A stretch of DNA of 64,000 nt from Caldilineae bacterium (GCA_037446815.1 JBBIHX010000002.1:7641-71640), one strand, 5' to 3'. Positions 6,001 to 59,935 are shown, numbered from the stretch's first letter. Made by a program: numbers and translations. Notes: generated from the letters alone by a model not told the origin.

Positions 6001-7255
6001 GAACCACAATATATCCGCTCGGAGGACGCAGGCGGTTGTAGCCCGACCACGTGCCCCAGATGAGTCCCGCCGCTGCAATCACACCGAACAGAACAAAGGC
6101 CCGCCTCCGGCGAACCCCTCTGGGCGTCCGCAGTGCCACGTAGAGAGCCAGTCCCGCCCCCGCCAAGAACAGCGGTGCAATCACGTAAGGAAAGTACTTC
6201 ACCAAAGGGGCTATGGGCGCCACAATCGCCTTGAACAATTGGCCGACGATCTGGTACGCAGCGAACAGGATGCTGATGATGCCGAGGATCATCGCTAATC
6301 GGCTGCGAAAATCGGTAGGCGCATGATCCACTGAGGGCGCCGTCTTCCCCGCCAGCGGCGCGATGACACCGATCGCACGCGCCAACTTCACGAGCCAGTC
6401 TTCCTTGGGTCTAGGAGGGGCAGCCTCATGAGGAGCCTCAGGCTTGGCCGCCAGCGCCGTGCGGAACGCCTGTGCCAGTTCTCCCGCGCTTGCGAAACGC
6501 TCGGCAGGGTCCTTCGCCAGCGCACGCAGGATCACCTGCGCCGCCGGTTCCGCGAGGTCGGGCCTGAACTGCCGCGGAGACTGCGGGGGCACAGTGCGAT
6601 GCTGCTCCAGCACCGCCGTAGACGACGCGCCTTGAAACGGAACGCGCCCGGTCGTCATTTCGTACAGCAACACGCCCAGGCAGTAGATATCGCTGGCGAC
6701 GGTTACCGAGCCGCCTGCCGCCTGCTCCGGCGATGCGTACGTAGCGGGAATGGCATCGGCAACACCCACTCGGGCCAGCGTCCTTCCGACGCCAAAGTCG
6801 GTAAGGATAGGATCACCCGAAGCGGTGAACAGAACGTTGCCGGGTTTGACCGCGCCGTGAACAACCCCATGCGCGTGGGCGTAGTCCAGCGCCGCAGCAA
6901 TCCCGTCCAGGATCCGCGAAACCTCCAGGAGGGGGAGGGTTGCGCCGGCCTGTCGCAACTCCGCAAGGCGGTCGCGCAAGGTGCCGCCAGCCAGGAACTC
7001 GGTTACAACGAACGCGCGACCGTCCTCCAGACAATCAAAGTCGTAGAACGGGACGATGTTCGGATGGCGCAGCGCGGCGATTCGTACGGCTTCAGAGCGA
7101 AACGCCTCCAGGAAAGCCCCACCGGCATGCCCAAGGATCACCTTGACGGCAACCCGCCGGTCCAAGACGGGATCCATTGCCTCGTAGACTTCGGCGCGAT
7201 CGCTGCGGTGAACGAGCCGGGTTGCCACATATTTGCCCAATCGCTGCACGCCCAT
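3059..7255 (-). CDS. Ser/Thr protein kinase with TM segments and a ~900-aa C-terminal TPR array
   Basis: Hanks kinase motifs are present (VAVKV, HRD-like HGAVKPGNVLF, DFG, APE), then a Pro-rich linker, 2-3 hydrophobic helices and many TPR repeats. The start is placed at MGVQRLGKY (ORF codon 108 = 7255). The tool ORF extends to 7576 through repeat sequence. Confidence 0.8.
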   Translation of the reverse strand: MGVQRLGKYVATRLVHRSDRAEVYEAMDPVLDRRVAVKVILGHAGGAFLEAFRSEAVRIAALRHPNIVPFYDFDCLEDGRAFVVTEFLAGGTLRDRLAELRQAGATLPLLEVSRILDGIAAALDYAHAHGVVHGAVKPGNVLFTASGDPILTDFGVGRTLARVGVADAIPATYASPEQAAGGSVTVASDIYCLGVLLYEMTTGRVPFQGASSTAVLEQHRTVPPQSPRQFRPDLAEPAAQVILRALAKDPAERFASAGELAQAFRTALAAKPEAPHEAAPPRPKEDWLVKLARAIGVIAPLAGKTAPSVDHAPTDFRSRLAMILGIISILFAAYQIVGQLFKAIVAPIAPLVKYFPYVIAPLFLAGAGLALYVALRTPRGVRRRRAFVLFGVIAAAGLIWGTWSGYNRLRPPSGYIVVLADFRRTDASLAWVDFAGHFEQYLESELRGLETTVRVVRTKEAYEDAAEARAAGAARKGTLVIWGWYDARGVSMRAEPLRVPSLQREALGLPLIGRSLLYAVSGGLVGAPEAGLSDVARFVRVPATLTDFEVFALNGPQQVAYVSSAILGMAFYINGDMEHALMMFDKAVGHSASGGTAILGVDTVYFQRAAALYALGRPDEAAADLRQVLALKPDSYEAHYNLAIVLADLCTPARQLDAAIAEAEEAVRLRPDLPDGHLLLGDLYRQRGQHEKALAQFQKAVEIAPDRADAYELLGATQSLMGLAAEAENSRRTAVGLRAKAASQRPPDPFQAHLDLANAYVAAGEYDKAVAEYEAAGKLKPDDHRVRWGLGNAYYWSGRLDRAEAEYKAWATGWPKDANAHLLLGLLYKEQGRIDEAVAALRQAAALSSCDPSARLLLGFIYTEKEDYQAAIREFEQALAIEPQDPSTLYLVGNLSYLEGQLDVAAQYLQAAIALQADMAEAHYSLGLVYADLGEHQKAVSEHALAVRYAPDVPAYHTALGNAYWRLQDWDKAAEAYRKALALQDDPDVRAFLGGTYFQQGKYEAAIAEYQKAIAADPRSAIAYAGLGDTYARMGRLQDALAAYAEQAKIADSAPLRRQMGALCILLGDVDRAASEYQKAVALDPQDWQSRVALANLYLAAARDSEAEAEYRAALAVNPNCADALYGIARVAYRRCNLSDMEQALKSAVVAAPGSALYKAGLGSVYEARGRTQEAAAIYAELAASPTADVLAHFLAADFLLRQGDLDGAEAQVQAVLAAPNNPPLLLSLAHELLGKVEYARERFIAATGEFQAALAAFPNSASAQQALGDVALRQGDVEGALTAYESVGALLPGYGQQMGEDEASLLVIGLEIRKGLALARRGSSSDSSAALDKAVALAQDLARQVPLWPRARFALALAYMMRGDTASADAELASATQCDESLVAAWARAQADVAKLR

Positions 7256-7427
7256 TTTGCATGCCCTCCCATGCAAGGGGAACCTATCCGCGCCCAGGCT
7301 GGTGTGGCTGGTCCACCGCACCCTGCCGATGCAGCAGCGTGGATGATACTCACCATAGCACGAACACAACAAACCGTCAAGGCGCGCACGCCACGCCGCG
7401 CCGCTGCGCCCAGGCGTCCTCTGGTAC

Positions 7428-7530
7428 TGCCATTGCGAGGGCACGGAGCGCCTGAAGCAACCCCTGGGAACTGTCATTCTGAGCGGCGAAGCCGCGAAGA
7501 ATCTAGGCCACCGAGAGGCTTCGCCTACAT
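7428..7530. repeat. Composite/degenerate repeat with a family-A half (cattgcgagggcacggagcgcctgaagcaacc) joined to a family-B half (ctgtcattctgagcggcgaagccgcgaagaatc...ggcttcgcc)
   Basis: Sequence identity to cores of repeats elsewhere in the window. A terminus-like fragment ccaacacaagccgaacc lies at 7568-7585. Confidence 0.6.
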
Positions 7531-7603
7531 CCCAGCATGGCACAGGGAGAAGCAACGTGCGGGCCACCCAACACAAGCCGAACCCGGCTCACGTTCTCTC
7601 AAG

Positions 7604-7751
7604 TCGGTCCCAAAGTCTGTTGGTGGCTGTCATTGCGAGGGCACGCAGTGCCCGAAGCAATCCCCGGGGCGTGGGGTTGCTTCGCTTCGCTCGCAATGAC
7701 ACACGAGGAGAGTGCGCCTACGGTTCCCCAACACAAGATGAAACCGACTCC
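7604..7751 (+). repeat. Family-A palindromic MITE/REP-like element, copy A1
   Basis: tcggtcccaaagtctgttgg...gtcattgcgagggcacgcagtgcccgaagcaatc...ggttgcttcgcttcgctcgcaatgac...ccaacacaagatgaaaccgactcc. Internal inverted repeats; near-identical to copies A2-A5. Confidence 0.85.
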
Positions 7752-18060: not shown

Positions 18061-18208
18061 TCGGTTCCAAAGTCTGTTGGTATTTGTCATTGCGAGGGCG
18101 CGGAGCGCCCGAAGCAATCTCTGGGGCGTGAGGTTGCTTCGCTTCGCTCGCAACGACACACGAGGAGAGTGTCCACGCGTTTCACCAACACAAGATGAAA
18201 CCGACTCC
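18061..18208 (+). repeat. Family-A palindromic MITE/REP-like element, copy A2
   Basis: Same termini and internal hairpins as A1. It lies immediately downstream of gene 17507..18004. Confidence 0.85.
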
Positions 18209-19748: not shown

Positions 19749-19894
19749 TCGGTTCCAAAGTCTGTTGGCATTTGTCATTGCGAGGGCGCTCCGCGCCCGA
19801 AGCAATCTCTGGGGCGTGAGGTTGCTTCGCTTCGCTCGCAACGACACGCGAGGAGAGTATTCATGCGTTTCACCAACACAAGATGAAACCGACT
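19749..19894 (+). repeat. Family-A palindromic MITE/REP-like element, copy A3
   Basis: Near-identical to A2. It begins 25 nt after the CpXC gene stop. Confidence 0.85.
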
Positions 19895-40179: not shown

Positions 40180-40252
40180 GCCGAGGTAGCTCAGTTGGAA
40201 GAGCACATCACTGAAAATGATGGGGTCCCCAGTTCAAATCTGGGCTTCGGCA
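40180..40252 (+). tRNA. tRNA-Phe (anticodon GAA)
   Basis: Cloverleaf folded by hand: acceptor GCCGAGG/CTTCGGC, anticodon loop CTGAAAA, T-arm GGTCC/GGGCT. Confidence 0.85.
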
Positions 40253-40257
40253 CCTGG

Positions 40258-40329
40258 GCGGAAGTGGCTCAGCGGTAGAGCATCTCCTTGCCAAGGAGAG
40301 GGTCGCGGGTTCAAATCCCGTCTTCCGCT
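40258..40329 (+). tRNA. tRNA-Gly (anticodon GCC)
   Basis: Acceptor GCGGAAG/CTTCCGC, anticodon loop TTGCCAA. Confidence 0.85.
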
Positions 40330-40344
40330 CCTTTTATTGTCCAG

Positions 40345-40418
40345 GGCGACGTAGCCAAGTGGCAAGGCAGGGGTCTGCAAAACCCCGATCGCGGGTTCAA
40401 GTCCCGCCGTCGCCTCCA
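40345..40418 (+). tRNA. tRNA-Cys (anticodon GCA), CCA encoded
   Basis: Acceptor GGCGACG/CGTCGCC, anticodon loop CTGCAAA, 3' TCCA. Confidence 0.85.
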
Positions 40419-44922: not shown

Positions 44923-45699
44923 GTGGCCCGCATGACATCATTCCTGAACGCGGACAACGTCATCCTTCTCGCAGCCATCGCCACATTGGGCACCGGCATC
45001 GCCACGGGTCTGGGCGCGCTGCCCGCCCTGCTCACGGTGCGCGTCAGCGACAAGTTGCTGGATGGCCTGCTTGGGTTTGCAGCGGGGGTCATGCTCGCCG
45101 CCACGTCCTTCAGCCTGCTCCTGCCGTCCATTGAAGCCGGAGGCGTGTGGGTTACCGTCACGGGGCTTCTCATCGGGGCCGCGTTTGTTGCCCTGATGGA
45201 CAGGGTCGTGCCTCACGTGCACTTCATCTCCGGCGCGGAAGGCCCGCCTTCGGCCACGTTGAAACGCATCACGCTGCTCATTCTCGCCATCACCATTCAC
45301 AACTTCCCCGAAGGCATGGCCGTGGGGGTTGGGTTTGGTAGCGAGAAGATGGACGTCGCCGTTGCGCTGGCCATTGCCATCGGCCTGCAGAACATGCCCG
45401 AAGGGCTGGCCGTGGCGCTCCCGCTCATGCGCGAGGGCTACTCGCGCTGGAAAGCGGTACTATACGCCCTGATGTCGGGCTTGGTGGAGCCCATCGGCGG
45501 CATCTTGGGCGCGGCGCTGGTATCGGTCGCGCACCCGCTCCTGCCCTGGGGGCTGAGTTTCGCCGCCGGGGCCATGCTCTACGTCATCAGCGAGGAGATG
45601 ATCCCCGAGACGCACCGAAAGGGATTCGCCAAGGTCGGCACGACGGGGCTTCTCGCCGGCTTTGTCGTGATGATGGTGCTGGACAACCTATTCGGCTAG
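44923..45699 (+). CDS. ZIP family metal cation transporter (ZupT-like)
   Basis: HNFPEG and GLQNMPEG metal-binding motifs. An alternative ATG start is at 44932. Confidence 0.85.
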   Translation: MARMTSFLNADNVILLAAIATLGTGIATGLGALPALLTVRVSDKLLDGLLGFAAGVMLAATSFSLLLPSIEAGGVWVTVTGLLIGAAFVALMDRVVPHVHFISGAEGPPSATLKRITLLILAITIHNFPEGMAVGVGFGSEKMDVAVALAIAIGLQNMPEGLAVALPLMREGYSRWKAVLYALMSGLVEPIGGILGAALVSVAHPLLPWGLSFAAGAMLYVISEEMIPETHRKGFAKVGTTGLLAGFVVMMVLDNLFG

Positions 45700-45730: not shown

Positions 45731-46930
45731 TCATGCCTGCTTCAGCGCACGGGCGAACCGCGCCCCGAATTCCTCCGCGGCGGCCAAATCCTCCCGCGTC
45801 GGCCCGCCGCGGAATTCCAGCGTCTCCACCAGTTCCCACTTGAGCGGGGTGATGAGATCGGTCAGTTCCTTTTGCGCGCCGCCGCTCCAGCCATAACTCC
45901 CGAACCACGCCGCTTTCTTGTTCAGGACCCGCTTGCGCGCCGCGATGTCCAGCAGGTGCGCCATCGGGGGGAACAACCCCACTTCATACGTCGGCGCGCC
46001 CATCATCACGCCCGACTTGGTCCACAGAGAAGGCAGAATGTAACTGTAGTGGGTGCGCGCAACATCAAAGACCCCTATCGGCACGTCCTCGCGCGAAATG
46101 CCCTGGGCCACGGCGTTCATCATCTTTTCCGTGTTCCCGTACATTGAGCCATACACCAACGTAACGCCCGGCTCCGCTGGCTCTGTCGCATAGCGCGCCC
46201 ACTGGGCGTACAGGTCCACGATGCGCTGCGGAGACTTGCGCCAAATGAGCCCATGGGACGGCGCAATCACCTCCACAGGCGTTGACTGCAGTTTCTTGAT
46301 GGCGCGGAGCACAGGGCCGCTGAACTTCGCCACGATGTTCACGTAGTACCGCAGCGCCTCGCGCTCGTAGAAACTCATGTCCACGCACTGGTCATCAAAG
46401 ATCGCGCCGCGAAGCGCGCCGTAACCGCCGAAAGCGTCGCCCGAGAAAAGCACCTTCTCGCCCTGGTCGTAGGTCATCATCGTCTCCGGCCAGTGCACGA
46501 AGGGCGTGGAAAAGAACTGCAGCGTATGGCGGCCCAAGTCAAGCGTGTCTCCATCTTGCACCACGCGGACCGTTTCGGCATCCCCGTAGAACGCCCCCAG
46601 CAATTCCTTCGTCTTCTCCGTGCCGAGAATCGTCGCGCGGGGCGCCAATCGGCGGAAGAGCGTCAGCAGCCCCGAGTGGTCCGGCTCAATGTGATTGACG
46701 ACGATGTAGTCAATCGCGTCCAGTTCGGCCAACTCGGCAACCTGGCCAAGAAACTCATCGGCTTTGAATGCCTTGGCCAGGTCTATCAGGGCAACCTTCT
46801 CATCCCGGATGAGATACGCATTGTAGGAAACGCCGGTCTGGTCAATGGGCCAGAGACCTTCAAACAGGTCAGTGGTCCTGTCATTGACGCCAATCCAGTA
46901 GATGTCGGGGCGAACTTGCACAACGCTCAT
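45731..46930 (-). CDS. Flavodiiron protein (metallo-beta-lactamase-like diiron domain + flavodoxin domain)
   Basis: HxExDH-type diiron motif (NHIEPDHSG), C-terminal flavodoxin (VYGSMYGNTEK). The start is at MSVVQV (ORF codon 34) with RBS aggagg. Confidence 0.85.
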   Translation of the reverse strand: MSVVQVRPDIYWIGVNDRTTDLFEGLWPIDQTGVSYNAYLIRDEKVALIDLAKAFKADEFLGQVAELAELDAIDYIVVNHIEPDHSGLLTLFRRLAPRATILGTEKTKELLGAFYGDAETVRVVQDGDTLDLGRHTLQFFSTPFVHWPETMMTYDQGEKVLFSGDAFGGYGALRGAIFDDQCVDMSFYEREALRYYVNIVAKFSGPVLRAIKKLQSTPVEVIAPSHGLIWRKSPQRIVDLYAQWARYATEPAEPGVTLVYGSMYGNTEKMMNAVAQGISREDVPIGVFDVARTHYSYILPSLWTKSGVMMGAPTYEVGLFPPMAHLLDIAARKRVLNKKAAWFGSYGWSGGAQKELTDLITPLKWELVETLEFRGGPTREDLAAAEEFGARFARALKQA

Positions 46931-47070
46931 GACGTTACCTCCTGATGCGATGCCTTCTCGTTCCACCGCACATGATACCCCACCTATGCGAGTTTTGCAA
47001 AGCCCATTCACACGGAACTGAAACCGCACCCGTGCCGTTCACCAACACAGCCCCGAATCACGCCCTGGAC

Positions 47071-47216
47071 TCGGTTCCAAACTGTGTTGGTGAAACGCAG
47101 ACACACTCTCCTCACGTGTCATTGCGAGCGAAGCGAAGCAATCGCACGTCCCGGAGATTGCTTCGGGCGCTCCGCGCCCTCGCAATGACAGCCACCAACA
47201 GACTTTGGAACCGAAC
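47071..47216 (-). repeat. Family-A palindromic element, copy A4 (inverted relative to A1-A3)
   Basis: tcggttccaaactgtgttggtgaa...gtcattgcgagcgaagcgaagcaatc...gattgcttcgggcgctccgcgccctcgcaatgac...ccaacagactttggaaccga. Confidence 0.85.
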
Positions 47217-47327
47217 CACGCCCTGCACGCCTTTGACAAAGGGCCGTCCGGATAGTAGAATGCGTCCAGATGGCCCATCTGCCGGGACTCGGCCCGATGG
47301 CCATCCCGACAACTCCGGAGATCTTCT

Positions 47328-48326
47328 GTGATTGCCAATCATGCGGAGAGCACGCTTCACGTCTTTGTTGAGGTGCGGCCCCCTCACGCCATGGGGCGTG
47401 GCGCACCGCCGCTCCTCGCCAATGCCCGCCACCGCGCCGCACTACGGATGGCCCAAGCGGCCCAGGCGTGCGGCGCCCGCGCGGCACTGCTGAACGGAGG
47501 CCGCCGATTCTCTCGTGCGGCGGCGCATGGGAATGCCCTCTGGGTCCGATGGGGCGGGGGAGCGTTGCTGGACGGCGAGGCCATACGCCGCTTGGGTTCC
47601 GCCGCGAGCGACGGCTGCATCTGGGGCAACCGTACCCCCAACGCGGACCTGTGGGCGTTTCCGGCGCGGACATGGCCGCAGCCCGGCAGCGCGCCGCAGA
47701 GATTCTTCCCGCCCTCTGCCGCAACGATGTTCCGCCTTGCCACCGCCGCAGACCTCTGCCTGCTCGCCGCGCTGGGCCCGCACGAACTGGCGCGCGATGC
47801 TGGGCGCGTCGCAGCTCCCGCCGTACTCCACAACATCCGCGCCGCTACGCGCCTGTTGACCCGTCGCACCGCCGAACTGGTTGTCGTAGGAGACACAGGC
47901 GCCGACGGATGGCATCACCTGGAGCAAGAGACCGCTTGCCGCGTTCGGCTTCTGGGCGATGCGCGCGGCGGATTGCTCGCCCATCTGCTCGCATCGGTGG
48001 GAGCCGAGCGTTTCGTCCGCTACCTATCCGAACTGGGCCAGGCACTCCTGGTCAACACCCGCATCCTGTTCGGAGAATCCGCCCCACCAACGCCGCGCGA
48101 CTTCTTCTACTCGGACATGGGGCTGACCGAGCGCATCGCCCATCGCGGGCTACGGGCGCTCACCGAAGCGCTGATTGGCGGCGACCGGCCAGCCATCCTG
48201 GGCGGCCAAAGCCTGCTCACGGGCGGCGTGTACCTGCTGATAGAACGCGCGTGGGAGGGCGAGGAATTGCCACGGCAGTACGAAACCCTCGCCATGCCCT
48301 CCGCCAAGCAAACCACAAAGGAGTGA
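47328..48326 (+). CDS. Hypothetical protein, possibly translationally coupled to the downstream SHMT-GcvT gene
   Basis: 332-aa ORF with a GTG start. It ends 5 nt before the 48331 start. No recognisable motif; coding status is uncertain. Confidence 0.4.
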   Translation: MIANHAESTLHVFVEVRPPHAMGRGAPPLLANARHRAALRMAQAAQACGARAALLNGGRRFSRAAAHGNALWVRWGGGALLDGEAIRRLGSAASDGCIWGNRTPNADLWAFPARTWPQPGSAPQRFFPPSAATMFRLATAADLCLLAALGPHELARDAGRVAAPAVLHNIRAATRLLTRRTAELVVVGDTGADGWHHLEQETACRVRLLGDARGGLLAHLLASVGAERFVRYLSELGQALLVNTRILFGESAPPTPRDFFYSDMGLTERIAHRGLRALTEALIGGDRPAILGGQSLLTGGVYLLIERAWEGEELPRQYETLAMPSAKQTTKE

Positions 48327-48330
48327 GGAA

Positions 48331-51300
48331 ATGCAAAACCGTCGCGATTTCCTGTTCCAGGGCCCCTTGGCCCTGCTAGACCCTGACGTTCAGGCGCTGA
48401 TTGACCTGGAAAGGGAGCGCCAATCTCGGCGAATCATCTTGATTCCCTCGGAGAGCATGGCCCCCGCTGCCGTGCGCGAGGCGCTTTCCTCCGAGTTCTC
48501 CCACATCTACGCCGAAGGGTATCCCCCGACGCGGATGACGCGCGAACCCGAGGACCTGCTGCTGGATCACGACTATCAACTGGCGCACTATCGCCGCTAC
48601 GCGGACCGTCGCTTCTACAAGGGCGCAGATTATGTCAACTTTGTGGAAGCCCTGGCCCAGCGCCGCGCCGCAGCCTGCTTCGCCAACGACCGCGTGCGCG
48701 CTGACCAAATCTTCGTCAACGTCCAGCCCCTCTCCGGCGCCGCCGCCAACAACGCCATCTACGAGGCATTTGTCAGGCCCGGCGACACCGTGATGGGCAT
48801 GAACCTGATGCACGGCGGCCACCTCACACACGGCAGCCAATTCAACCGCTCGGGCAAGCAATACCGCATCGTGTCCTACACCGTTGACCCGAAAACCGAG
48901 CGGTTGGACTACGATGCCATCCGCGAGTTGGCCCTCCAGCACCGCCCGAAGATGATCATCGCGGGCTACACCTCCTACCCGTGGGCCCCGGACTGGGAGA
49001 AGTTCCGCGACATCGCCGATGCGGTCGGGGCCATCCTCATGGCCGACATCGCCCACACCGCCGGCATGGTCATCGGCGGCGTGTATCCCAGCCCGGTGGG
49101 CATTGCCGATGTTACCGTCTTCACCACGCACAAGACCATCTGTGGCCCGCGCGCAGCCGTCATCCTGACAACGTCGGAGGAACACGCCGCGAGGGTTGAC
49201 AACGCCGTGTTCCCCGGCGAGCAGGGCGGGCCTCATGTCAACACCTTCGCCGCCCTCGCCGTCGCCTTCAAACTCGCCCAGACGCCGCAATTTGCCGCGC
49301 TCCAGAGGCAGATTGTCGTCAACGCGCGGGCGCTGGCCCAGAGCCTACAGCATCGCGGCCTGCGCCTGGCCTATGGCGGCACCGACACGCACCTCCTCCT
49401 CGTGGACCTCAAGTCGGTCAAATCGGCGAACGGCGAGTTCCCCAGGGGCGAAGTAGCCGCCCGCCTGCTGGAAATCTGCGGCATCATCGTCAACAAGAAC
49501 ACAATCCCCGGCGATGAAATCACTGCCCTTGCCAGCGGCATTCGGCTCGGCACCCCGTGGGTTACGCAGCGGGGCATGCGCGAGCAGGACATGGACCAAA
49601 TCGCCGATTTCATCTTCCGCGTCGTGAGGGAGATTCGCCCGTTCCAGTACCTCGGTCTCAGCGGCGTACTCCCGCGCGGCAAAGTTCCCTTCTCCCTGAT
49701 TCGGCAGGTGCGGCGCGAGGTGGACGAGTTTGCGTCGCGCTTCGAGCCGAAAACCGAGCAGCGGTCCGCGTACCCCCATTACCACCTGCCCCCCGCGGAG
49801 AAACCGCCCGCCTGGCTGGCCCAGGCCCACGAAGCGGATACGGCCGCGGTCTCGCACGCCTTGCGCGAAGGCGCAGCCGTGATTGACCCCTCGCATTTCA
49901 CCGTGCTCCTGGTGCGCGGCGCTCGGGCGCGGGCATTCCTGCAAGAGGCCTCCACCGCGAACCTGGCGACGCTGGAGCCGGGTCGGGCAGCCCATGCCGC
50001 GCTTCTGGATGGCGATGGCCGGCTGCTGGATGACGTGCTCATCATCCGCCTGGCTCCGACGCCGCGCGGCGAAGACTGCTACTACGTGGTGGCCAACGCC
50101 GCCAACGCCGACACCGTCAGGGACTGGTTCCGAGCCTTGAGCGATGGCTATGTGCTCTTTGACAATCACGATGTGCTCCGCAAAGTGCAAGGCCCTGCTG
50201 TTGTGGTGGACGCCACTGCCGAAGCACAAGCCCCGGACGCCGCACGGGTGGCCGTGGCCGTCGTGGGGCCGGCGGCAAGCGCGCTTGTGGAGGCGGCTGT
50301 GTCGCCGAGCCGCGGCGACAGCAACCCCGCAGAAGCGCCGGTTGCCGAGAGGATTCGGCTGATCGGCCCCGTGCCCTTCCTGCGCGACGGATTCCTGTGC
50401 GTGGGCGACCCCGACGCCGTGCGTGCCCTGGAGGAGCGACTCTTGCAGGCAGGCGCGGTGCCCGGCGGCAGGAGCGCCTGGCTTGCCGCGCGGCGGGCGG
50501 CGGGACTGCCCACCTATGACGGCGACGCGCCTCGCCCCAGCGGCCTGGCCCTGCTCCAGGGCGGGCACGAGCGCATGTTTGACCTGCGCAAGCCCTACTT
50601 CGTGGGACAGGATTCTCTGGCCCCCTCGGCCCCTGTGGAACGATTGCCCGAGTTCGTGTGGCAACCGCTGGAGAACGAAGAACTCAAGCGCACCCCCCTA
50701 TACGAAGAGCACAAGAAGCGCACACGCAAGTTGATTCCCTTCGCCGGCTGGGAGATGCCGGTCTGGTACACCAGCGTAAGCGAAGAACATGCCGCCGTTC
50801 GCAAGGCCGCCGGGCTCTTTGACGTGGCCCACATGGGAGTGCTTGAGGTCTCAGGCTCCCACGCCTCCGCGTTCCTGGATGTGGTGGCCTCCAACTACGT
50901 GCGCTGGCTGGAGCCGGGGCAGTCCCAGTACGCCTACCTGCTGGACCCCGACGGCAACGTGCTGGACGATGTCATCATCTACTGCCTGACCCGCGAACGC
51001 TACATGATGGTGGTCAACGCAGCCAATGCCGACAAAGACTGGGCCTGGCTCAACGCGGTGAACGAGGGGCGCGTGCTCATTGACCGCAGCCGCCCATATG
51101 TGCGCGTTGAGACGCCGGCCGTTCTGCGAGACCTGAAAGACCCGCGCTGGGGCAAGGATTGCCGGGTTGACCTGGCGCTGCAAGGCCCTGCGTCGCTGGC
51201 TATTCTGCAAAGCCTTGCCCGCCACGCCCGGCAGGCCACGGATTTGGCCCACATCCGCCGCACCGAGTTGATAGAGACCACCCTCGCGGGCATGCCCATC

Positions 51301-51936
51301 GTCATCTCGCGAACGGGATACACCGGCGAGCCTGTGGGCTATGAACTGTTCGTGCACCCCGACGAAGCCGTGCGCCTGTGGAACCTGCTGCTGGAGAAGG
51401 GCGAGCCGTTCGGGCTGAAACCCGCCGGCTTGGCGGCCCGCGACTCTACCCGCATTGAGGCCGGCCTCCCGCTGTACGGGCACGAACTCGCCGGGGATTA
51501 CGGCATCACGCCGATTGAGGCGGGGTTTGAGCCTTATGTCAAGTATCACAAGCCATTCTTCGTCGGGCGCGAGGCCATCCTACGCCACTCGGCGAGCGCG
51601 ACCCACACCATCGTGCGGTTCCGGGTCAACTCGCCCAACGCGCGCGCGCTCCGGGGCCACGAGCCTGTGGTCAACAAGCGCGGGCAATACATCGGGCGTG
51701 TTACCAGCTGCACCCTCGTGGGCGAAACGCAAATCGGCATGGCCCTCGTGGACAAACGCTACGCGCAGGAGGGCGCGGAGATCGCCGTCTTCCCGACCGC
51801 GGCAGCCAAGAGCAGCGGGCCCATCTCCCTGGCCGACCTGCAACGCGGCGACCAGGTCCTCCTCCCCGAGTGGTGCACGATCCTGGCTCGGTTCCCCAGG
51901 CTGGGCATGCCCCCTAGCGCAGAGGGCGGAGAATAG
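48331..51936 (+). CDS. glyA-gcvT: Fusion protein: serine hydroxymethyltransferase (GlyA) + degenerate GcvT/YgfZ-like folate-binding module + full aminomethyltransferase (GcvT, glycine cleavage T protein)
   Basis: The first ~440 aa carry the SHMT PLP-Lys region (FTTHKTICGPR). The final ~400 aa carry the GcvT N-terminal motif (GLFDVAHMGVLEVSG). They sit in a single 1201-aa ORF with RBS aaaggag. Confidence 0.8.
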   Translation: MQNRRDFLFQGPLALLDPDVQALIDLERERQSRRIILIPSESMAPAAVREALSSEFSHIYAEGYPPTRMTREPEDLLLDHDYQLAHYRRYADRRFYKGADYVNFVEALAQRRAAACFANDRVRADQIFVNVQPLSGAAANNAIYEAFVRPGDTVMGMNLMHGGHLTHGSQFNRSGKQYRIVSYTVDPKTERLDYDAIRELALQHRPKMIIAGYTSYPWAPDWEKFRDIADAVGAILMADIAHTAGMVIGGVYPSPVGIADVTVFTTHKTICGPRAAVILTTSEEHAARVDNAVFPGEQGGPHVNTFAALAVAFKLAQTPQFAALQRQIVVNARALAQSLQHRGLRLAYGGTDTHLLLVDLKSVKSANGEFPRGEVAARLLEICGIIVNKNTIPGDEITALASGIRLGTPWVTQRGMREQDMDQIADFIFRVVREIRPFQYLGLSGVLPRGKVPFSLIRQVRREVDEFASRFEPKTEQRSAYPHYHLPPAEKPPAWLAQAHEADTAAVSHALREGAAVIDPSHFTVLLVRGARARAFLQEASTANLATLEPGRAAHAALLDGDGRLLDDVLIIRLAPTPRGEDCYYVVANAANADTVRDWFRALSDGYVLFDNHDVLRKVQGPAVVVDATAEAQAPDAARVAVAVVGPAASALVEAAVSPSRGDSNPAEAPVAERIRLIGPVPFLRDGFLCVGDPDAVRALEERLLQAGAVPGGRSAWLAARRAAGLPTYDGDAPRPSGLALLQGGHERMFDLRKPYFVGQDSLAPSAPVERLPEFVWQPLENEELKRTPLYEEHKKRTRKLIPFAGWEMPVWYTSVSEEHAAVRKAAGLFDVAHMGVLEVSGSHASAFLDVVASNYVRWLEPGQSQYAYLLDPDGNVLDDVIIYCLTRERYMMVVNAANADKDWAWLNAVNEGRVLIDRSRPYVRVETPAVLRDLKDPRWGKDCRVDLALQGPASLAILQSLARHARQATDLAHIRRTELIETTLAGMPIVISRTGYTGEPVGYELFVHPDEAVRLWNLLLEKGEPFGLKPAGLAARDSTRIEAGLPLYGHELAGDYGITPIEAGFEPYVKYHKPFFVGREAILRHSASATHTIVRFRVNSPNARALRGHEPVVNKRGQYIGRVTSCTLVGETQIGMALVDKRYAQEGAEIAVFPTAAAKSSGPISLADLQRGDQVLLPEWCTILARFPRLGMPPSAEGGE

Positions 51937-53201: not shown

Positions 53202-54659
53202 CTAAGGTTGCCAGCGCAGTTTGGGTTCGCGTGCCGCCCGCACGTCATCCAGTCGGCGGAGCGGCGTGGTATGGGGCGCGTTGTGCAGCAACTCCGGCTG
53301 GGTGCGCGCCTCCTCCGCGATTTGCAGCATGGCGTCGGCGAAGGCGTCCAGGGTCTCAAGGGATTCCGTCTCCGTCGGCTCTATCATCAAGGCCTCCGGC
53401 ACGATCAACGGGAAATAGATGGTCGGCGGATGGAAGCCGAAATCCATCAGGCGCTTGGCGATGTCAATCGTGCGCACACCCTCTGCCCCGGGAATCTTCC
53501 CCGACAGGACAAACTCGTGCATGCACGTTCGCTTGTAGGGCAGCGGATACGTGTCCTGGAGGCGCACGCGCAGGTAATTCGCGTTGAGCACCGCATGCTC
53601 TGCCACCTGTCGCAACCCCTCAATGCCCAGGTGGAGGATGTAGGCGCAGGCGCGTACCAGCACCCCGAAGTTCCCGTAAAACGCCTTGACGCGGCCGATG
53701 CTCTTCGGCGGCATGAAGGGGTAGAAATAGAGCCCCTCGTCCAAAGACTCCTCGTCCGGAATCTCCACACGCACAATAGGGCCTGGCAGATAGTCCGCCA
53801 GCGCCTTCGTAACGCCCACCGGCCCCGCCCCCGGACCACCGCCGCCATGGGGCGTGGAGAACGTCTTGTGCAGGTTGAAGTGCATGATGTCAAACCCGAG
53901 GTCGGCGGGTCGCACGACTCCCACAATGGCGTTGAGGTTCGCACCATCGCCGTACAGAAGCCCGCCGCACCCATGCACAATCTTCGCGATCTCCAGGATG
54001 TTCTCATCAAAGAGGCCCAACGTGTTGGGATTGGTCAGCATCATCCCGGCCACGTGCTCGTCGCAATGCGCCTTGAGATCCTCCAAGTCCACGTTGCCGC
54101 GCGCATCGGACCGAATCTCCACCACCTCAAAGCCGCACATGGCAGTGGAGGCAGGATTGGTGCCGTGGGCTGAATCGGGCACCAGAACCTTCGTGCGCCC
54201 CAGGTCGCCCCTATCCCGATGGTAGGCCCGAACCATGAGCATGCCAGTAAATTCGCCGTGTGCCCCCGCAGCAGGCTGCAAGGAGATGGCTGCAAACCCG
54301 CTAATCTCCTGCAACAACCCTTGCAGCACGTACATCACGTAGAGGCAGCCCTGGACCATATGGGCGGGCTGGTAGGGGTGAACCGCAGCAAACCCCTCCA
54401 GGCGCGAGATCACCTCGTTGATTTTTGGATTGTACTTCATCGTGCAGGACCCCAGCGGGTAGAAGCCGGTATCCACCGCGTGGTTCAGGTGCGACAGGCG
54501 CACATAGTGGCGCACCAGGTCCGGTTCGCTCACCTCGGGCAATGGCAGATCGTTGCGGAGAAAGGCCTGGGGTAGTCTCGCCTCGGGCACGTCCAACTCC
54601 GGCAACGACGCAGCGCATCGTCCCGGCCTGCTGATTTCAAAGATGAGAGGCTCTGTCAT
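53202..54659 (-). CDS. gcvPB: Glycine dehydrogenase (decarboxylating) subunit 2
   Basis: GcvPB family conservation including the PLP-Lys region. An ATG at 54659 overlaps the gcvPA stop (ATGA). Confidence 0.9.
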
Positions 54660-55993
54660 CAACTCACCTCCTTGAGCGCCCGAACCAGCGTATCAATCTC
54701 CAGGCGCGAGTTCCGCTCCGTAACGCACACCAGCATGTGATTCGCCATCTCCGGATAGTCGCGGCCCAGGTCATACCCGCCGATGATATCCCGTTCCAGC
54801 AATGCCTCGTTCATCTCGGCGACCGGCTTAGGACATCTGACCACGAACTCCCTGAAGAAGGGCTTTGTCGTTACGACCTCGTAGTGGCGGAGTTTGGAGA
54901 TTTCCCTGGCCAGGTAGTGCGCTTTGTGATAGCAGATTTCGGCGAGTTGGCGAAGCCCGCATTTGCCCAACGCGGCCAGATACACCGCCGCCGCCAGTGC
55001 ATTCAGCGCCTCGTTGCTGCAGATGTTGGACGTGGCGCGCTCGCGGCGAATGTGCTGCTCCCGGGCCGAGAGGGTCAGCACAAACCCGCGCTTCCCCTCC
55101 GCATCCACCGTCTCGCCGACAAGTCGCCCGGCCATCTTGTGCACGTACTGCTCTCGCGTGGCGAAGAAGCCGAGGTAGGGACCACCGAAACTTAGCGGAT
55201 TGCCCAGCGGCTGGCCCTCGCCTACGACGATGTCGGCCCCGTAATCGCCCGGCGCCTTGAACAGCCCTAAGGCGATGGGATCGGCCACGACCACCCACAA
55301 CGCGCCTTTGTCGTGCACGTGCTCGGCTATCCCCCGGAAGTCCTCCAACTCACCCAGGAAGTTGGGGAACTGGGTAACAAAGCAGGCGGTCTCCTCGTCA
55401 ACCAGGCTTAGGAGCGATTGCGCATCCTGTCGCGTGTCGTCGCCCACGATCTCCAGGTCAAGCCCCTGCACATAGGTGCGCGTCGTCGCCCGATACTCCG
55501 GGTGCACGAACGGGGACATCACCACCTTGTTGCGCTTCTTCCGCAGCACGTTGTACGCCATCACAACGGCCTCGGCCACGGCGGTCGCCCCATCGTAGTG
55601 CGAAGCGTTGGCGACCTCCATGCCGGTCAGCGCGCAGATCATGCTCTGGTACTCAAAGATCGCCTGCAGCGTGCCCTGGCTAATCTCCGGCTGGTACGGC
55701 GTGTAGGCGGTATAGAACTCGGAGCGACTGACGATGTGGTCCACAACGCTAGGAATGAAGTGCCTATAGGCGCCCGCGCCCAGGAAGCACATATAATCGT
55801 TGACATTCGCATTGTTATCGCTGGCAAATCGGAAATGCTCCAGCAATGTCTGTTCGTCAAGCGGAGGGGGAAACTTAAACTTAGGGTAAAGCACCTTGGC
55901 CGGCACATCGGCGAAGAGGTTCTTGATGTGCTTCACCCCGATGGCGTCCAGCATGGCGGCGCGGTCGGCGTCGCTGTGGGGAATGTACGGCAT
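54659..55993 (-). CDS. gcvPA: Glycine dehydrogenase (decarboxylating) subunit 1
   Basis: GcvPA family conservation (MPYIPHSD...). Confidence 0.9.
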
Positions 55994-56394
55994 TAGTGCC
56001 CTCCCTTCTTGGCCTCCTCGGCGAGGAACTTCGCATAAGCGTCGGCGTCCAGCAGGGACTTGGCCTCATCCGGATCGCTCACCTTGATGCGCACGAACCA
56101 GCCCTTGCCGTAGGGGTCCTCGTTCACCAGTTGTGGCGAGTCCTCCAACTCCTTGTTGACCGCGATGATCTCGCCGCTCAGGGGGAGATACACGTCCGAC
56201 GCGGCCTTCACCGACTCCACCGTGCCGAACACATCGCCCTGGGCGAAGGTGTCGCCGACCTCGGGAAGTTCCACATAGACCACGTCGTTCAGTTCCTCCT
56301 GGGCGAAATCCGAGATGCCCACCACGGCCTCGTCGCCCTCTAGCCGCACCCACTCGTGGCTCTCCATGTACAACAGTCCTTGCTCTACTTTCAT
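55993..56394 (-). CDS. gcvH: Glycine cleavage system H protein
   Basis: Lipoyl-lysine motif ESVKAASD; 133 aa. Confidence 0.9.
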   Translation of the reverse strand: MKVEQGLLYMESHEWVRLEGDEAVVGISDFAQEELNDVVYVELPEVGDTFAQGDVFGTVESVKAASDVYLPLSGEIIAVNKELEDSPQLVNEDPYGKGWFVRIKVSDPDEAKSLLDADAYAKFLAEEAKKGGH

Positions 56395-57547: not shown

Positions 57548-57694
57548 TCGGTTTGATCTTGTGTTGGTGAACCGTAGACGCACTCTCCTCGTGTGTCATT
57601 GCGAGCGAAGCGAAGCAATCCCACGCCCCGGAGATTGCTTCGGGCACTGCGTGCCCTCGCAATGACGGGTACCAACAGACTTTGGAACCGACTC
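57548..57694 (-). repeat. Family-A palindromic element, copy A5 (inverted)
   Basis: tcggtttgatcttgtgttggtgaa...gtcattgcgagcgaagcgaagcaatc...gattgcttcgggcactgcgtgccctcgcaatgac...ccaacagactttggaaccgactc. It lies between pfk and the DUF362 gene. Confidence 0.85.
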
Positions 57695-57719: not shown

Positions 57720-58976
57720 CTACTCGCTCCCCAGGCTCATCAGCCGCCCCAGCAGCGAACGCCGCAGTTCCACCGCGTTCTCGGGACAGACCTCGTGGCA
57801 GCAGTAGCAGCGGATGCACTTGTTCCAATCCATGCGGGCGCGGCCGTTGACCAGCGTAATCGCCTGCACGGGGCAACTCCGCACGCACACGCCGCACCCG
57901 ACGCACCGCTCCGTCGCCTGCGGGTTCGCCACAATCTGCCGCGTTACCCAACCGCGGATGGATTTCGGCGCCGTACCCACGTCCAGCGCGGCGTAGTCCT
58001 CGGCCTCGCACGCGGGCTTGCCGTCCACGGTTCGCGCGGCCACCAGCCTCCGCCCCAAGCGCCGGATTGCCCGCGGGAAGATGCCCGTGTCCATCGTCGT
58101 CGCTGTGCCAAATCGGAAGCCCGACAGCCTGGCTTCCGCCAGAGGCAGCCCCAGGATGGGCACGTCTTCCACGGTGCAGGATGTAAGCCCGCGCGCTGCC
58201 GCCACCTTTAGGGGCGGGATGCTGAAAGGATCCATCCCGACCAGCGTTGCGCACACCACGTCCATCGCAAACGGATCGGCCGACGCAAGAAGCAGATTCG
58301 CCACATACGGATCCCCGCCCGACGGGCCGTTGCCATGCATGCCCACGATGGCATCCATGACCGTGAGCACGGGCTTCACGTAGGTGATGATGTCCACCAG
58401 CGCCTCGGAGAAGCGCATGGCATCCTGCAACTTGGCGTGGTAACCGAACTTGGTTACCCCAGGCACGACGCCGAACAGGATTTTCGTCGCGCCGGTAATG
58501 CGGGTCAGGTTGTGGGTCTTGAACTTTGGGAGCGCGATGACCGCGTCGGCCTCGGCCACCGCCTTCAGGATGTCCAGCCGCTTGATGAGGTGTCCCTCGG
58601 GGTGCGAAACCTGCAACGTGGACACGTCGTAGTTCAGTTCCATCCCCACTTCTTCGGCAACCTTATCGTAGCCCCCGCGGGTGTAGGCCAGCCGCAAGGC
58701 CGCCTTGTTGAACGGCCCCGCGGGACTCTCGGCGAGCACAGGCGTGGCCCCCGCCTCCCGCACCAGAATCGCAACCGCGCGCACCACAGCGGGATGGGTG
58801 ATGATCGCGGAATCGGGCGAGGCGGCGCGCAAGATGTTCGGCTTCAGCACAACCCGCCACCCGGGCTTGACAAACGAACTCATGCCGCCGAGCATGTCCA
58901 CCGCCGATCGCACGGCGCGCTCAACAGCCTCGGCATCGTAGGTGGTGCAACGTAGCATGGCAACCGTACCGGGCAT
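57720..58976 (-). CDS. DUF362 domain protein with C-terminal 2x[4Fe-4S] ferredoxin domain
   Basis: C-terminal CVGCGVCVRSCP...CIRCYCCHEVCP. The start is at MPGTVAM (ORF codon 172) with RBS ggaggtc. The tool ORF extends to 59489. Confidence 0.7.
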   Translation of the reverse strand: MPGTVAMLRCTTYDAEAVERAVRSAVDMLGGMSSFVKPGWRVVLKPNILRAASPDSAIITHPAVVRAVAILVREAGATPVLAESPAGPFNKAALRLAYTRGGYDKVAEEVGMELNYDVSTLQVSHPEGHLIKRLDILKAVAEADAVIALPKFKTHNLTRITGATKILFGVVPGVTKFGYHAKLQDAMRFSEALVDIITYVKPVLTVMDAIVGMHGNGPSGGDPYVANLLLASADPFAMDVVCATLVGMDPFSIPPLKVAAARGLTSCTVEDVPILGLPLAEARLSGFRFGTATTMDTGIFPRAIRRLGRRLVAARTVDGKPACEAEDYAALDVGTAPKSIRGWVTRQIVANPQATERCVGCGVCVRSCPVQAITLVNGRARMDWNKCIRCYCCHEVCPENAVELRRSLLGRLMSLGSE

Positions 58977-59062
58977 GTCCACAAGACCTCCGATCGGAAT
59001 GGGAAAGGCAACAACGCGTTGGTGTGGAGTATAGCACGTCCCTGGGCCTAGACCAAAAGCGG

Positions 59063-59935
59063 CTACTTGGACTCTGCGTTCCCGAGAATGCGCTCCTCCA
59101 GCCGCGGCGCGCCGAAACGAATCGCCACGACGCCCTCCAGCGAGCGCAGGGGCGTCTCGGCCGTGATCGTCGTGGAGCCGCGTGCGACGTAGGTAACGCG
59201 CCCCACCCCGCGGCACAATCCCTCCGCATCCACGAACCCGCAGATGCGTTGCGCCGTCGGCAGAAGCCAGTTCACGGCCGCGATAGACTGCAGCGGGAAC
59301 GTTAGGGGGATGGCCTGCTTGAAGTAGGCCTCCCAGCGCTCCCGCCGCCACGCCACGCGCTCGGCCCGGCTGCGGATGCGCGCATGGGGCGAGACGCGCA
59401 GCGTAGTAATTCGCACCAGCGGGTGATTGCGCCAGGACGCGAGGATGGGGTTCAACTCCGCGCCCCGCACCAGCGCGATCACATAGCACGGCATCAGCAG
59501 GTCAATCTTGGCCTGTTTCAGCGCCAAGCCGCCCTGCCCGGGGTCCACAAGGCCGGTGGAATCCACGATGACCGTTTCCGCGCCCAGGGACAGCGCCTTC
59601 TCGTACAGCGTGTGCACGCCCACGAGGATGCGCAGCATGTGGCCGCGGGGGGAAATTGCGCCCACAAAGTACGTGTAGTCCGTGCACTGCGCGCCCGTGA
59701 TGACGCGCAGCGTCATGGTGGCAGGCAGCCCGAGCGCGCCCTGGCCCACATCGCAGTCCATGAGCGCGATGGCCCGGGCGCGCGGGGCCCATTGCTGCAG
59801 CAGATAGTGCGCCAGCGAGGTCTTCCCGCTGTCGGTGCCGCCGACGAGGAGCACCGCGCCTCGCATATCCTGTGCGGCCAGCGATTCCCACTCCGGCGGC
59901 ACAATGAGATTGGAAGCGACGTTTGCCTGTACCAT
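59063..59935 (-). CDS. Clp1/Grc3-like P-loop NTPase (putative polynucleotide kinase)
   Basis: Walker A VGGTDSGKTS; Walker B-like VIVDSTG. 290 aa. Confidence 0.55.
   Translation of the reverse strand: MVQANVASNLIVPPEWESLAAQDMRGAVLLVGGTDSGKTSLAHYLLQQWAPRARAIALMDCDVGQGALGLPATMTLRVITGAQCTDYTYFVGAISPRGHMLRILVGVHTLYEKALSLGAETVIVDSTGLVDPGQGGLALKQAKIDLLMPCYVIALVRGAELNPILASWRNHPLVRITTLRVSPHARIRSRAERVAWRRERWEAYFKQAIPLTFPLQSIAAVNWLLPTAQRICGFVDAEGLCRGVGRVTYVARGSTTITAETPLRSLEGVVAIRFGAPRLEERILGNAESK

Follow-up and report, generated by a model that had tools for sequence, protein, structure and literature searches.

A stretch of 64,000 nucleotides from a Caldilineae bacterium (GCA_037446815.1, JBBIHX010000002.1:7641-71640; hereafter the window) contains a long open reading frame (ORF) in which a serine hydroxymethyltransferase (SHMT), a degenerate GcvT-type middle module (MID) and a complete T-protein (GcvT) of the glycine cleavage system follow one another (Table 1). 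A gene of an uncharacterised family precedes the ORF on the same strand, and the glycine-cleavage genes gcvH, gcvPA and gcvPB lie in an operon that converges on it from the opposite strand. An earlier note on the window had proposed that the three modules form one polypeptide, and the profile searches, structure alignments and conserved architecture described below all agree with this. The translation contains zero internal stops, the GC content is continuous over the ORF (0.62-0.70), and no repeats were found at the module junctions.

A Pfam search with the whole protein detected SHMT (E = 5e-120), two stretches of GCV_T (E = 1e-101) and GCV_T_C. The curated models for both enzymes were matched above their cut-offs, namely PF00464 (401 bits; cut-off, 27) and NCBIfam NF000586 (441 bits; cut-off, 335) for SHMT, and the equivalog model TIGR00528 (318.5 bits; cut-off, 235.85) and NF001567 (364.9 bits; cut-off, 300) for GcvT, while the demethylase and oxidase relatives of GCV_T scored far under their own cut-offs. 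We also scanned three segments singly with Pfam (the N-terminal 470 aa, the middle 350 aa and the C-terminal 421 aa). The N-terminal segment matched SHMT (E = 2e-121), and the C-terminal segment matched GCV_T (E = 1.9e-75) and GCV_T_C, so that the GcvT-like nature of the C-terminal part, which the note had left to be checked by such annotation, is clear. In the C-terminal module GCV_T spans aa 790-1066 and GCV_T_C aa 1094-1153, giving the three-domain architecture of a T-protein.

The SHMT module was compared residue by residue with the Bacillus stearothermophilus enzyme (bsSHMT), and also with Escherichia coli SHMT. The motifs YAEGYP, GGHLTHG, MADIAH, TTHKT (with the pyridoxal phosphate (PLP) lysine), FPGEQGGP and SGIRLGTP are all present, and the hallmark residues of the PLP and folate sites are invariant in an alignment of 71 family sequences; more widely, the catalytic motifs of the SHMT and T modules are invariant over 71-120 homologues. 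The module carries a family-conserved insertion of 25 residues, in which R68, M69, T70, Q83, Y87, R88, R89, Y90 and D92 are conserved. No SHMT in the PDB aligned across this insertion, which is predicted to be helical (predicted local distance difference test (pLDDT) score, 60-80), and the profile of the standalone PRK13580/NF010094 subfamily aligns solely past it, in split stretches. The insertion site corresponds to the loop that bears the partner-subunit active-site residues in known SHMTs.

The C-terminal module was aligned to the T-proteins of Bacillus subtilis, Thermotoga maritima, Pyrococcus horikoshii and E. coli, and D879/D880, NAAN (N896/N899), RTGYTGE (residues 994-1000; E1000) and ARDSTRIEAG (residues 1036-1045; R1037) are invariant. 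We take D879/D880 to include the catalytic aspartate (the region of E. coli D97 and human D101) and the other residues to make contacts with folate. In comparisons with three close relatives, dN/dS was 0.04-0.08 for the SHMT module and 0.07-0.09 for the GcvT module; both modules are therefore under strong purifying selection.

MID alone also matched GCV_T (PF01571; E = 2.3e-26; 93 bits; cut-off, 25.6) at positions 31-240 of the 255 in the profile, but no GCV_T_C match was found in this segment with Pfam, and TIGR00528 gave 53.9 bits against the required 235.85, so MID is not a full T-protein. Its similarity to the C-terminal module of the same protein (34% identity over 286 aa, 113 bits, E = 5e-33) compares with at most 48 bits to any solved GcvT in the PDB, and the two modules have in common a lineage-specific extension after the NAAN helix. 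Because of this similarity and the shared extension, MID is regarded as an internal tandem duplicate of the protein's own T module. It ends exactly at K-P-Y-F-V-G-Q, the point where the barrel domain would begin, and the RTGYTGE of the T module is replaced by GPVPFLRDG. Judged from these losses in the sequence, a second catalytic T site in MID is very unlikely.

The sole well-conserved stretch of MID (aa ~522-630) is equivalent to GcvT domain 2, with D567/D568 and a NAAN-like motif, and is present in every family member. By contrast, residues 628-710 are variable, and they are deleted in a common subclass of ~1040-1110 aa. The same division was seen in dN/dS (core, 0.10-0.17; variable half, 0.51-0.63). 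The core is functionally constrained, since it is conserved throughout the family and its dN/dS is low. As for the earlier description of this part as a degenerate GcvT/YgfZ-like module, the derivation from GcvT stands, whereas the likeness to YgfZ does not: only GcvT-type families were matched, and no YgfZ match was obtained in NCBIfam (E <= 0.1) or PDB searches. At the position of the YgfZ signature, which we take to be K-G-C-Y/F-x-G-Q-E with a conserved cysteine, MID reads RKPYFVGQD and lacks the cysteine.

The structure of residues 1-1190 was predicted with AlphaFold2 from the alignment of 71 sequences. The best full-length model had a mean pLDDT of 85.4 and a predicted template modelling (pTM) score of 0.85. 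Its SHMT part superposed on SHMT crystal structures with target-normalised TM scores of 0.92-0.94, and MID was confidently folded (pLDDT about 85-93 for aa 500-640), with weaker values in the linker at aa 470-500 and predicted disorder at aa 659-672. The pTM of 0.85 for a three-module chain suggests that the modules are held in a defined mutual arrangement. No PDB chain covered more than one module (query-normalised TM <= 0.33).

Table 1. Positions of the fusion gene, its modules and the neighbouring features in the window
Feature	Position	Strand	Remarks
Fusion ORF, SHMT-MID-GcvT	48331..51936	+	1201 aa, ATG start, complete
SHMT module, aa 1-470	48331..49740	+	Profile matches, motifs, model superposition on SHMT crystals
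Family-conserved 25-aa insertion, aa 68-92	48532..48606	+	Between YAEGYPpt and RRFYKG
Linker, aa 471-505, with near-invariant YPH motif (aa 481-483)	49741..49845	+	pLDDT 62-68
MID module, aa ~506-772	49846..50646	+	Degenerate GCV_T domain without C-terminal barrel
MID conserved core, aa 522-630	49894..50220	+	Equivalent of GcvT domain 2; DD (567-568) and NAAN kept
Complete GcvT (T-protein) module, aa 785-1170	50683..51840	+	GCV_T and GCV_T_C barrel
Upstream gene, 332 aa	47328..48326	+	Divergent member of an uncharacterised ~385-aa family
Promoter-like site, TTGACA-17 nt-TAGAAT	47233..47261	+	11/12 consensus match; upstream of the two-gene unit
gcvH, lipoyl carrier H-protein	55993..56394	-
gcvPA, glycine dehydrogenase subunit 1	54659..55993	-	NF001696, 638 bits; cut-off, 364
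gcvPB, glycine dehydrogenase subunit 2	53202..54662	-	NF003346, 749 bits; cut-off, 441
Response-regulator receiver and ParA/MinD-like P-loop ATPase gene, 379 aa	52033..53172	-	Downstream of gcvPB, at a distance of 29 nt
Perfect 18-bp inverted repeat with 6-nt loop	51968..52009	.	-43.9 kcal/mol, z = -5.5; between the convergent operons

Distribution of the fusion

A search of 5.8 billion proteins gave 6634 matches. All of the best 120 are proteins of 1095-1252 aa, and most of them (~1190-1250 aa) match the query over 98-100% of its length, with 52-100% identity. Their sources are independent assemblies of NCBI, JGI, ENA and Logan, and those that have a name are called 'GcvT' or 'glycine hydroxymethyltransferase'. 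When the GTDB species genomes were scanned with an alignment specific to the junction (SHMT C-terminus, linker and MID core), at least 231 were found to encode the fusion, which answers the question of orthologous fusions raised in the earlier note. The following counts refer to 80 listed loci of these 231 genomes, all 80 from metagenome-assembled genomes (MAGs). The order SHMT, MID and GcvT on one strand was kept in all 80. Most of the sources (61) are labelled Chloroflexota, comprising 43 of Anaerolineae type, 10 Chloroflexia, 7 Chloroflexota and 1 Ardenticatenia; eight are labelled Aerophobetes, one Acetothermia, and a few Thermodesulfobacteriota, Thermoplasmata, Pirellulales or Clostridia, or are unclassified.

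When MID was the sole query of an exhaustive search, 69 representative clusters (formed at 50% identity) were obtained with E <= 1e-30, a number that rose to 186 with E <= 1e-10. The three modules were mapped with purpose-built hidden Markov models on 150 representatives, 89 of which have the complete SHMT-MID-GcvT architecture. Nearly all of the shorter ones begin within the SHMT or MID profile and are thus fragments at contig ends, so that alternative architectures (MID-GcvT without SHMT, or SHMT-GcvT without MID) were rejected, although the architecture of a few Met-starting proteins of 575-670 aa is ambiguous.

The fusion is therefore genuine and not an assembly artefact. The earlier note had named an assembly join or a sequencing frameshift merging separate glyA and gcvT genes as what would refute it, and this explanation, for which the sole point is the unusual length of the ORF, deserves practically no credence, because the same colinear ORF recurs in at least 231 species genomes and in hundreds of metagenome assemblies of independent origin, with continuous composition and repeat-free junctions.

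Full-text literature searches gave no description of an SHMT-GcvT fusion and nothing relevant on the glycine cleavage system or SHMT in Anaerolineae. Two textbook enzymes thus occur, together with a domesticated internal duplicate, in a clade-wide fused architecture that is undescribed in the literature searched, with the sequences already public under single-function names. The remark in the note that the architecture is not standard is right with respect to model organisms, but in a large uncultured clade the fusion is the norm.

In the Aerophobetes MAG E44_bin3 the fusion occurs on three separate contigs (loci L036, L046 and L075), which may reflect paralogs or mixed strains. Two MAGs labelled Thermoplasmata archaeon (L060 and L071) have fusions that are 50-55% identical, possibly owing to horizontal transfer or mis-binning.

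Genes around the fusion

In the window no second SHMT or GcvT homologue was found. The 383-aa ORF upstream of gcvH, which was considered as a candidate for a standalone gcvT, is a phosphofructokinase gene (pfkA). Because the gcvH-PA-PB operon thus has no gcvT of its own, the fusion would be the T-protein of the local system. Within 10 kb of the fusion, gcvH-PA-PB was found in 21 of the 80 loci. In eight of the 21, gcvH is on the strand of the fusion and starts 96-186 nt beyond the point where the GcvT-module alignment ends, so that the fusion occupies the canonical gcvT slot of a gcvT-H-PA-PB operon; in four more, gcvH is on that strand too, 1.1-2.4 kb downstream. The gcv genes are convergent, as in the window, in seven loci and upstream of the fusion in the other two. 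No second SHMT or GcvT was found within the +/-10 kb flanks in any of the 80 loci. At locus L085, for example, the fusion lies beside gcvPB-gcvPA-gcvH-lplA and a radical S-adenosylmethionine (SAM) gene, with no other gcvT. Other loci have varied neighbours, including PALP-type enzymes, aminotransferases, glycerate kinase and fatty-acid synthesis genes. In some distant lineages a different PLP enzyme is found directly upstream of the fusion (L084, 8798-9931; L003, 8772-9965). The short-MID class has a PF00291 (PALP) protein there, and Aerophobetes have an aminotransferase of class I/II, a hint of serine/glycine-related operons that are lineage-specific.

The P and H proteins had been described as encoded on the opposite strand and converging on the same terminator hairpin as the fusion. 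This is true of the gcv operon but not of gcvPB itself, since a response-regulator/ParA gene intervenes. This gene, probably the last of the gcvH-PA-PB operon, has the same position only in the closest relatives (L004-L006). The hairpin between the convergent operons is flanked by a weak T-tract only and looks like a bidirectional terminator. Upstream of the gcv operon, pfkA adjoins a gene (57720-59489, minus strand) whose 589-aa product has an Npun_F2552-family region and a C-terminal 2x[4Fe-4S] ferredoxin domain.

The gene upstream of the fusion ends 4 nt before the fusion ATG, with AGGAG near its 3' end. This spacing and the conserved synteny are consistent with the translational coupling suggested previously. 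In 20 of 60 loci (L014, L019, L035, L042, L057, L072, L081, L085 and others) a member of its ~385-aa family lies upstream of the fusion and shares its strand; the copy in the window is a shortened, divergent ortholog that lacks EERGMRASGR. The family had no Pfam or NCBIfam match at E <= 1. An AlphaFold2 model (pLDDT 92) has an N-terminal nucleotidyltransferase fold of the CofC/FbiD/IspD/MobA type and a second alpha/beta domain. The promoter-like site upstream of the two-gene unit is a candidate by its match to the consensus. An Rfam scan of the window at gathering thresholds detected neither a glycine riboswitch nor any other regulatory RNA but three tRNAs only, which form a cluster at 40180-40415 (plus strand), and a relaxed scan of 46900-48400 gave no match.

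The divergent intergenic region between the fusion operon and an fprA-like gene also contains a copy (47071-47214, with 22-nt flanking inverted repeats) of an element resembling repetitive extragenic palindromes or miniature inverted-repeat transposable elements. The core of this element, CATTGCGAGCGAAGCGAAGCAATC, has five copies in the window, against 0 expected by chance; the others are at 7675-7698, 18132-18155, 19820-19843 and 57597-57620. The fprA-like gene (45731-47029, minus strand; flavodiiron protein, FprA/flavorubredoxin-like) is divergent from the fusion operon and adjoins a ZupT zinc transporter gene (44923-45699, plus strand), and the same flavodiiron/ZupT synteny was seen in L004-L006 and L086. 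Elsewhere in the window, an ORF of 1505 aa with a TTG start occupies 3059-7576 (minus strand).

Proposed function and alternative explanations

We consider that the protein is a bifunctional SHMT/T-protein with a non-catalytic GcvT-derived bridge, which serves the gcvH-PA/PB system, and we give this reading a probability of roughly 0.7. The SHMT site would interconvert serine and tetrahydrofolate (THF) with glycine and methylene-THF (CH2-THF), and the T site would interconvert aminomethyl-H-protein and THF with NH3, CH2-THF and reduced H-protein, its partners being GcvH and GcvPA/PB from the convergent operon. MID arose by tandem duplication of the T module, followed by loss of the barrel and of RTGYTGE with retention of the domain-2-like core, and may now be a structural spacer or a docking piece by which the T module is held in a fixed geometry to the SHMT core, presumably dimeric. 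The fusion could offer two gains, a 1:1 expression of the activities and a proximity coupling of the folate sites, in which the CH2-THF formed at one site is used at the other. Cycling of folate between the sites would have the net reaction 2 Gly + NAD+ <-> Ser + CO2 + NH3 + NADH, while with both sites working in the same direction serine would be fully converted to two one-carbon (C1) units. Channelling of folate between the sites, which the earlier note had also suggested, is a plausible hypothesis, and the fusion could serve either of these two putative modes.

Several points weigh against this reading. The insertion sits in the loop with active-site residues, so that an altered specificity of the SHMT is conceivable. 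The four remaining AlphaFold2 models were less confident (pLDDT 75-82), and the mutual arrangement of the modules is a soft suggestion, read from pTM and pLDDT. The gcv genes were found within 10 kb in no more than 21 of the 80 loci, and the check for standalone glyA and gcvT reached the +/-10 kb flanks only and not the rest of the genomes. In addition, the unfused T-protein and SHMT of pea-leaf mitochondria reportedly exchange folate through the free pool, with no channelling.

The pea-leaf work would favour an explanation that we hold to be less likely, namely that the fusion provides co-expression only, with independent modules, no kinetic coupling or channelling, and MID as a decaying spacer left over from the duplication. 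The near-neutral evolution of the variable half of MID, its deletion in the short subclass and the low pLDDT of the linker at aa 470-500 would all fit such a spacer. However, one would expect a mere spacer to have disappeared or to have been replaced, whereas the MID core has been kept at low dN/dS in every member over deep divergence; moreover, the module order never varies, and the pTM over 1190 residues argues for a fixed arrangement.

We regard a more elaborate proposal as doubtful. The protein might be a self-contained machine with an SHMT dimer core and two T-protein arms, in which the MID core and the SHMT insertion would form a bridge or tunnel for an enclosed shuttle of (polyglutamylated) folate, with the nucleotidyltransferase-fold protein as an accessory. 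If this were true, it would run a closed THF/CH2-THF cycle (2 Gly <-> Ser + CO2 + NH3) and could form the centre of a route of the reductive-glycine type in Chloroflexota that are anaerobic.

It also seems unlikely that MID is itself a working ligand site, either a second holder of folate or its polyglutamate tail or a dock for GcvH, which hands the cofactor or the lipoyl arm between the sites. The conservation of D567/D568 (at least 90%), the retained NAAN-like motif, the retained R721, whose aligned position is close to the arginine of ARD in the C-terminal module, and the constrained and confidently folded core would speak for such a role. Nevertheless, the folate cavity of solved T-proteins is built from all three domains, and MID has no C-terminal barrel, has its RTGYTGE replaced, has half of domain 1 variable or deleted in many members, and scores far under the GcvT cut-offs (69 against 300 bits).

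Finally, it is improbable that the protein has a new function and is neither the housekeeping SHMT nor the housekeeping T-protein, with one or more of its modules using different substrates in the manner of THF-dependent demethylases, sarcosine/dimethylglycine-type systems or SHMT-like aldolases and transaldolases. GCV_T has been reused in DmdA, LigM, trimethylamine N-oxide (TMAO) demethylase and sarcosine oxidase, which are all weaker matches here, and the conserved insertion beside SHMT active-site residues and the variable neighbourhoods could be taken in the same sense. Against this, the C-terminal module exceeds the GcvT equivalog cut-off, with the demethylase and oxidase models far below theirs, the catalytic motifs of SHMT are all intact, the fusion takes the gcvT slot before gcvH-PA-PB in eight loci, and it is the only T-protein in clusters that combine the glycine cleavage system with lipoylation genes.

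With the bifunctional SHMT/T-protein as the preferred reading, the finding bears on C1 metabolism in several ways. C1 units enter folate metabolism mainly by two routes, SHMT and the glycine cleavage system, and together these also make up the core of the reductive glycine pathway that is being engineered for formate/CO2 assimilation. Direct folate exchange between the unfused plant SHMT and glycine cleavage enzymes is debated, and a natural fusion that is fixed across a large uncultured clade and replaces gcvT in an operon is a ready test case for folate channelling as well as a template for engineered fusions. Because databases give these 1200-aa proteins names of one function, MAG-based reconstructions of pathways may wrongly list glyA or gcvT as absent from Anaerolineae. 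Through its genetic linkage, the fusion also draws attention to an uncharacterised protein family.

Comparison with known systems

The SHMT module has the fold of GlyA (B. stearothermophilus, 1KKJ; E. coli, 1DFO; TM 0.92-0.94) at 38-43% identity and has in common with it the TTHKT lysine, GGHLTHG, D-x-x-H, FPGxQGGP and SGIRxGT. It differs in the insertion at aa 68-92, in a eukaryote-like C-terminal extension (aa ~438-472) and in its covalent continuation into ~730 residues of GcvT-type modules.

The C-terminal module resembles GcvT (1YX2, 1WOO, 1V5V and 3A8I) as a full three-domain T-protein above the TIGR00528 equivalog cut-off, with DD, NAAN, RTGYTGE and ARDxxRxEAG invariant, and the fusion is linked to gcvH/gcvP and fills the gcvT position of the operon. 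It is not, however, a standalone protein of ~360 aa: it is preceded by a truncated duplicate of itself, its NAAN helix is followed by an insertion of ~25 aa, across which the P. horikoshii enzyme alone gave an unbroken alignment, and its C-terminus is extended by a tail of ~30 aa. MID and YgfZ/CAF17 (COG0354) belong in common to a distant GcvT-like fold family, but MID has neither a YgfZ profile match nor the signature cysteine.

Sequence similarity is also detectable to dimethylglycine oxidase (1PJ5), dimethylglycine dehydrogenase (DMGDH), the alpha subunit of heterotetrameric sarcosine oxidase and TMAO demethylase (9Q59), in which an upstream catalytic domain is likewise combined with a GCV_T/GCV_T_C part that loads C1 units onto THF. 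In these enzymes an iminium or formaldehyde is set free by an upstream flavoprotein or metalloenzyme, and the part that resembles GcvT makes no use of H-protein. In the fusion, by contrast, SHMT takes the upstream place and depends on folate in its own right, and by its profile score the C-terminal part is a true GcvT.

Lastly, two bifunctional enzymes that channel their substrates, protozoan dihydrofolate reductase-thymidylate synthase and formiminotransferase-cyclodeaminase, differ from the fusion in fold and chemistry, which are unrelated, and channelling in the fusion is hypothetical only; these two enzymes carry two consecutive folate activities on one chain and provide a precedent for the hand-over of folate.

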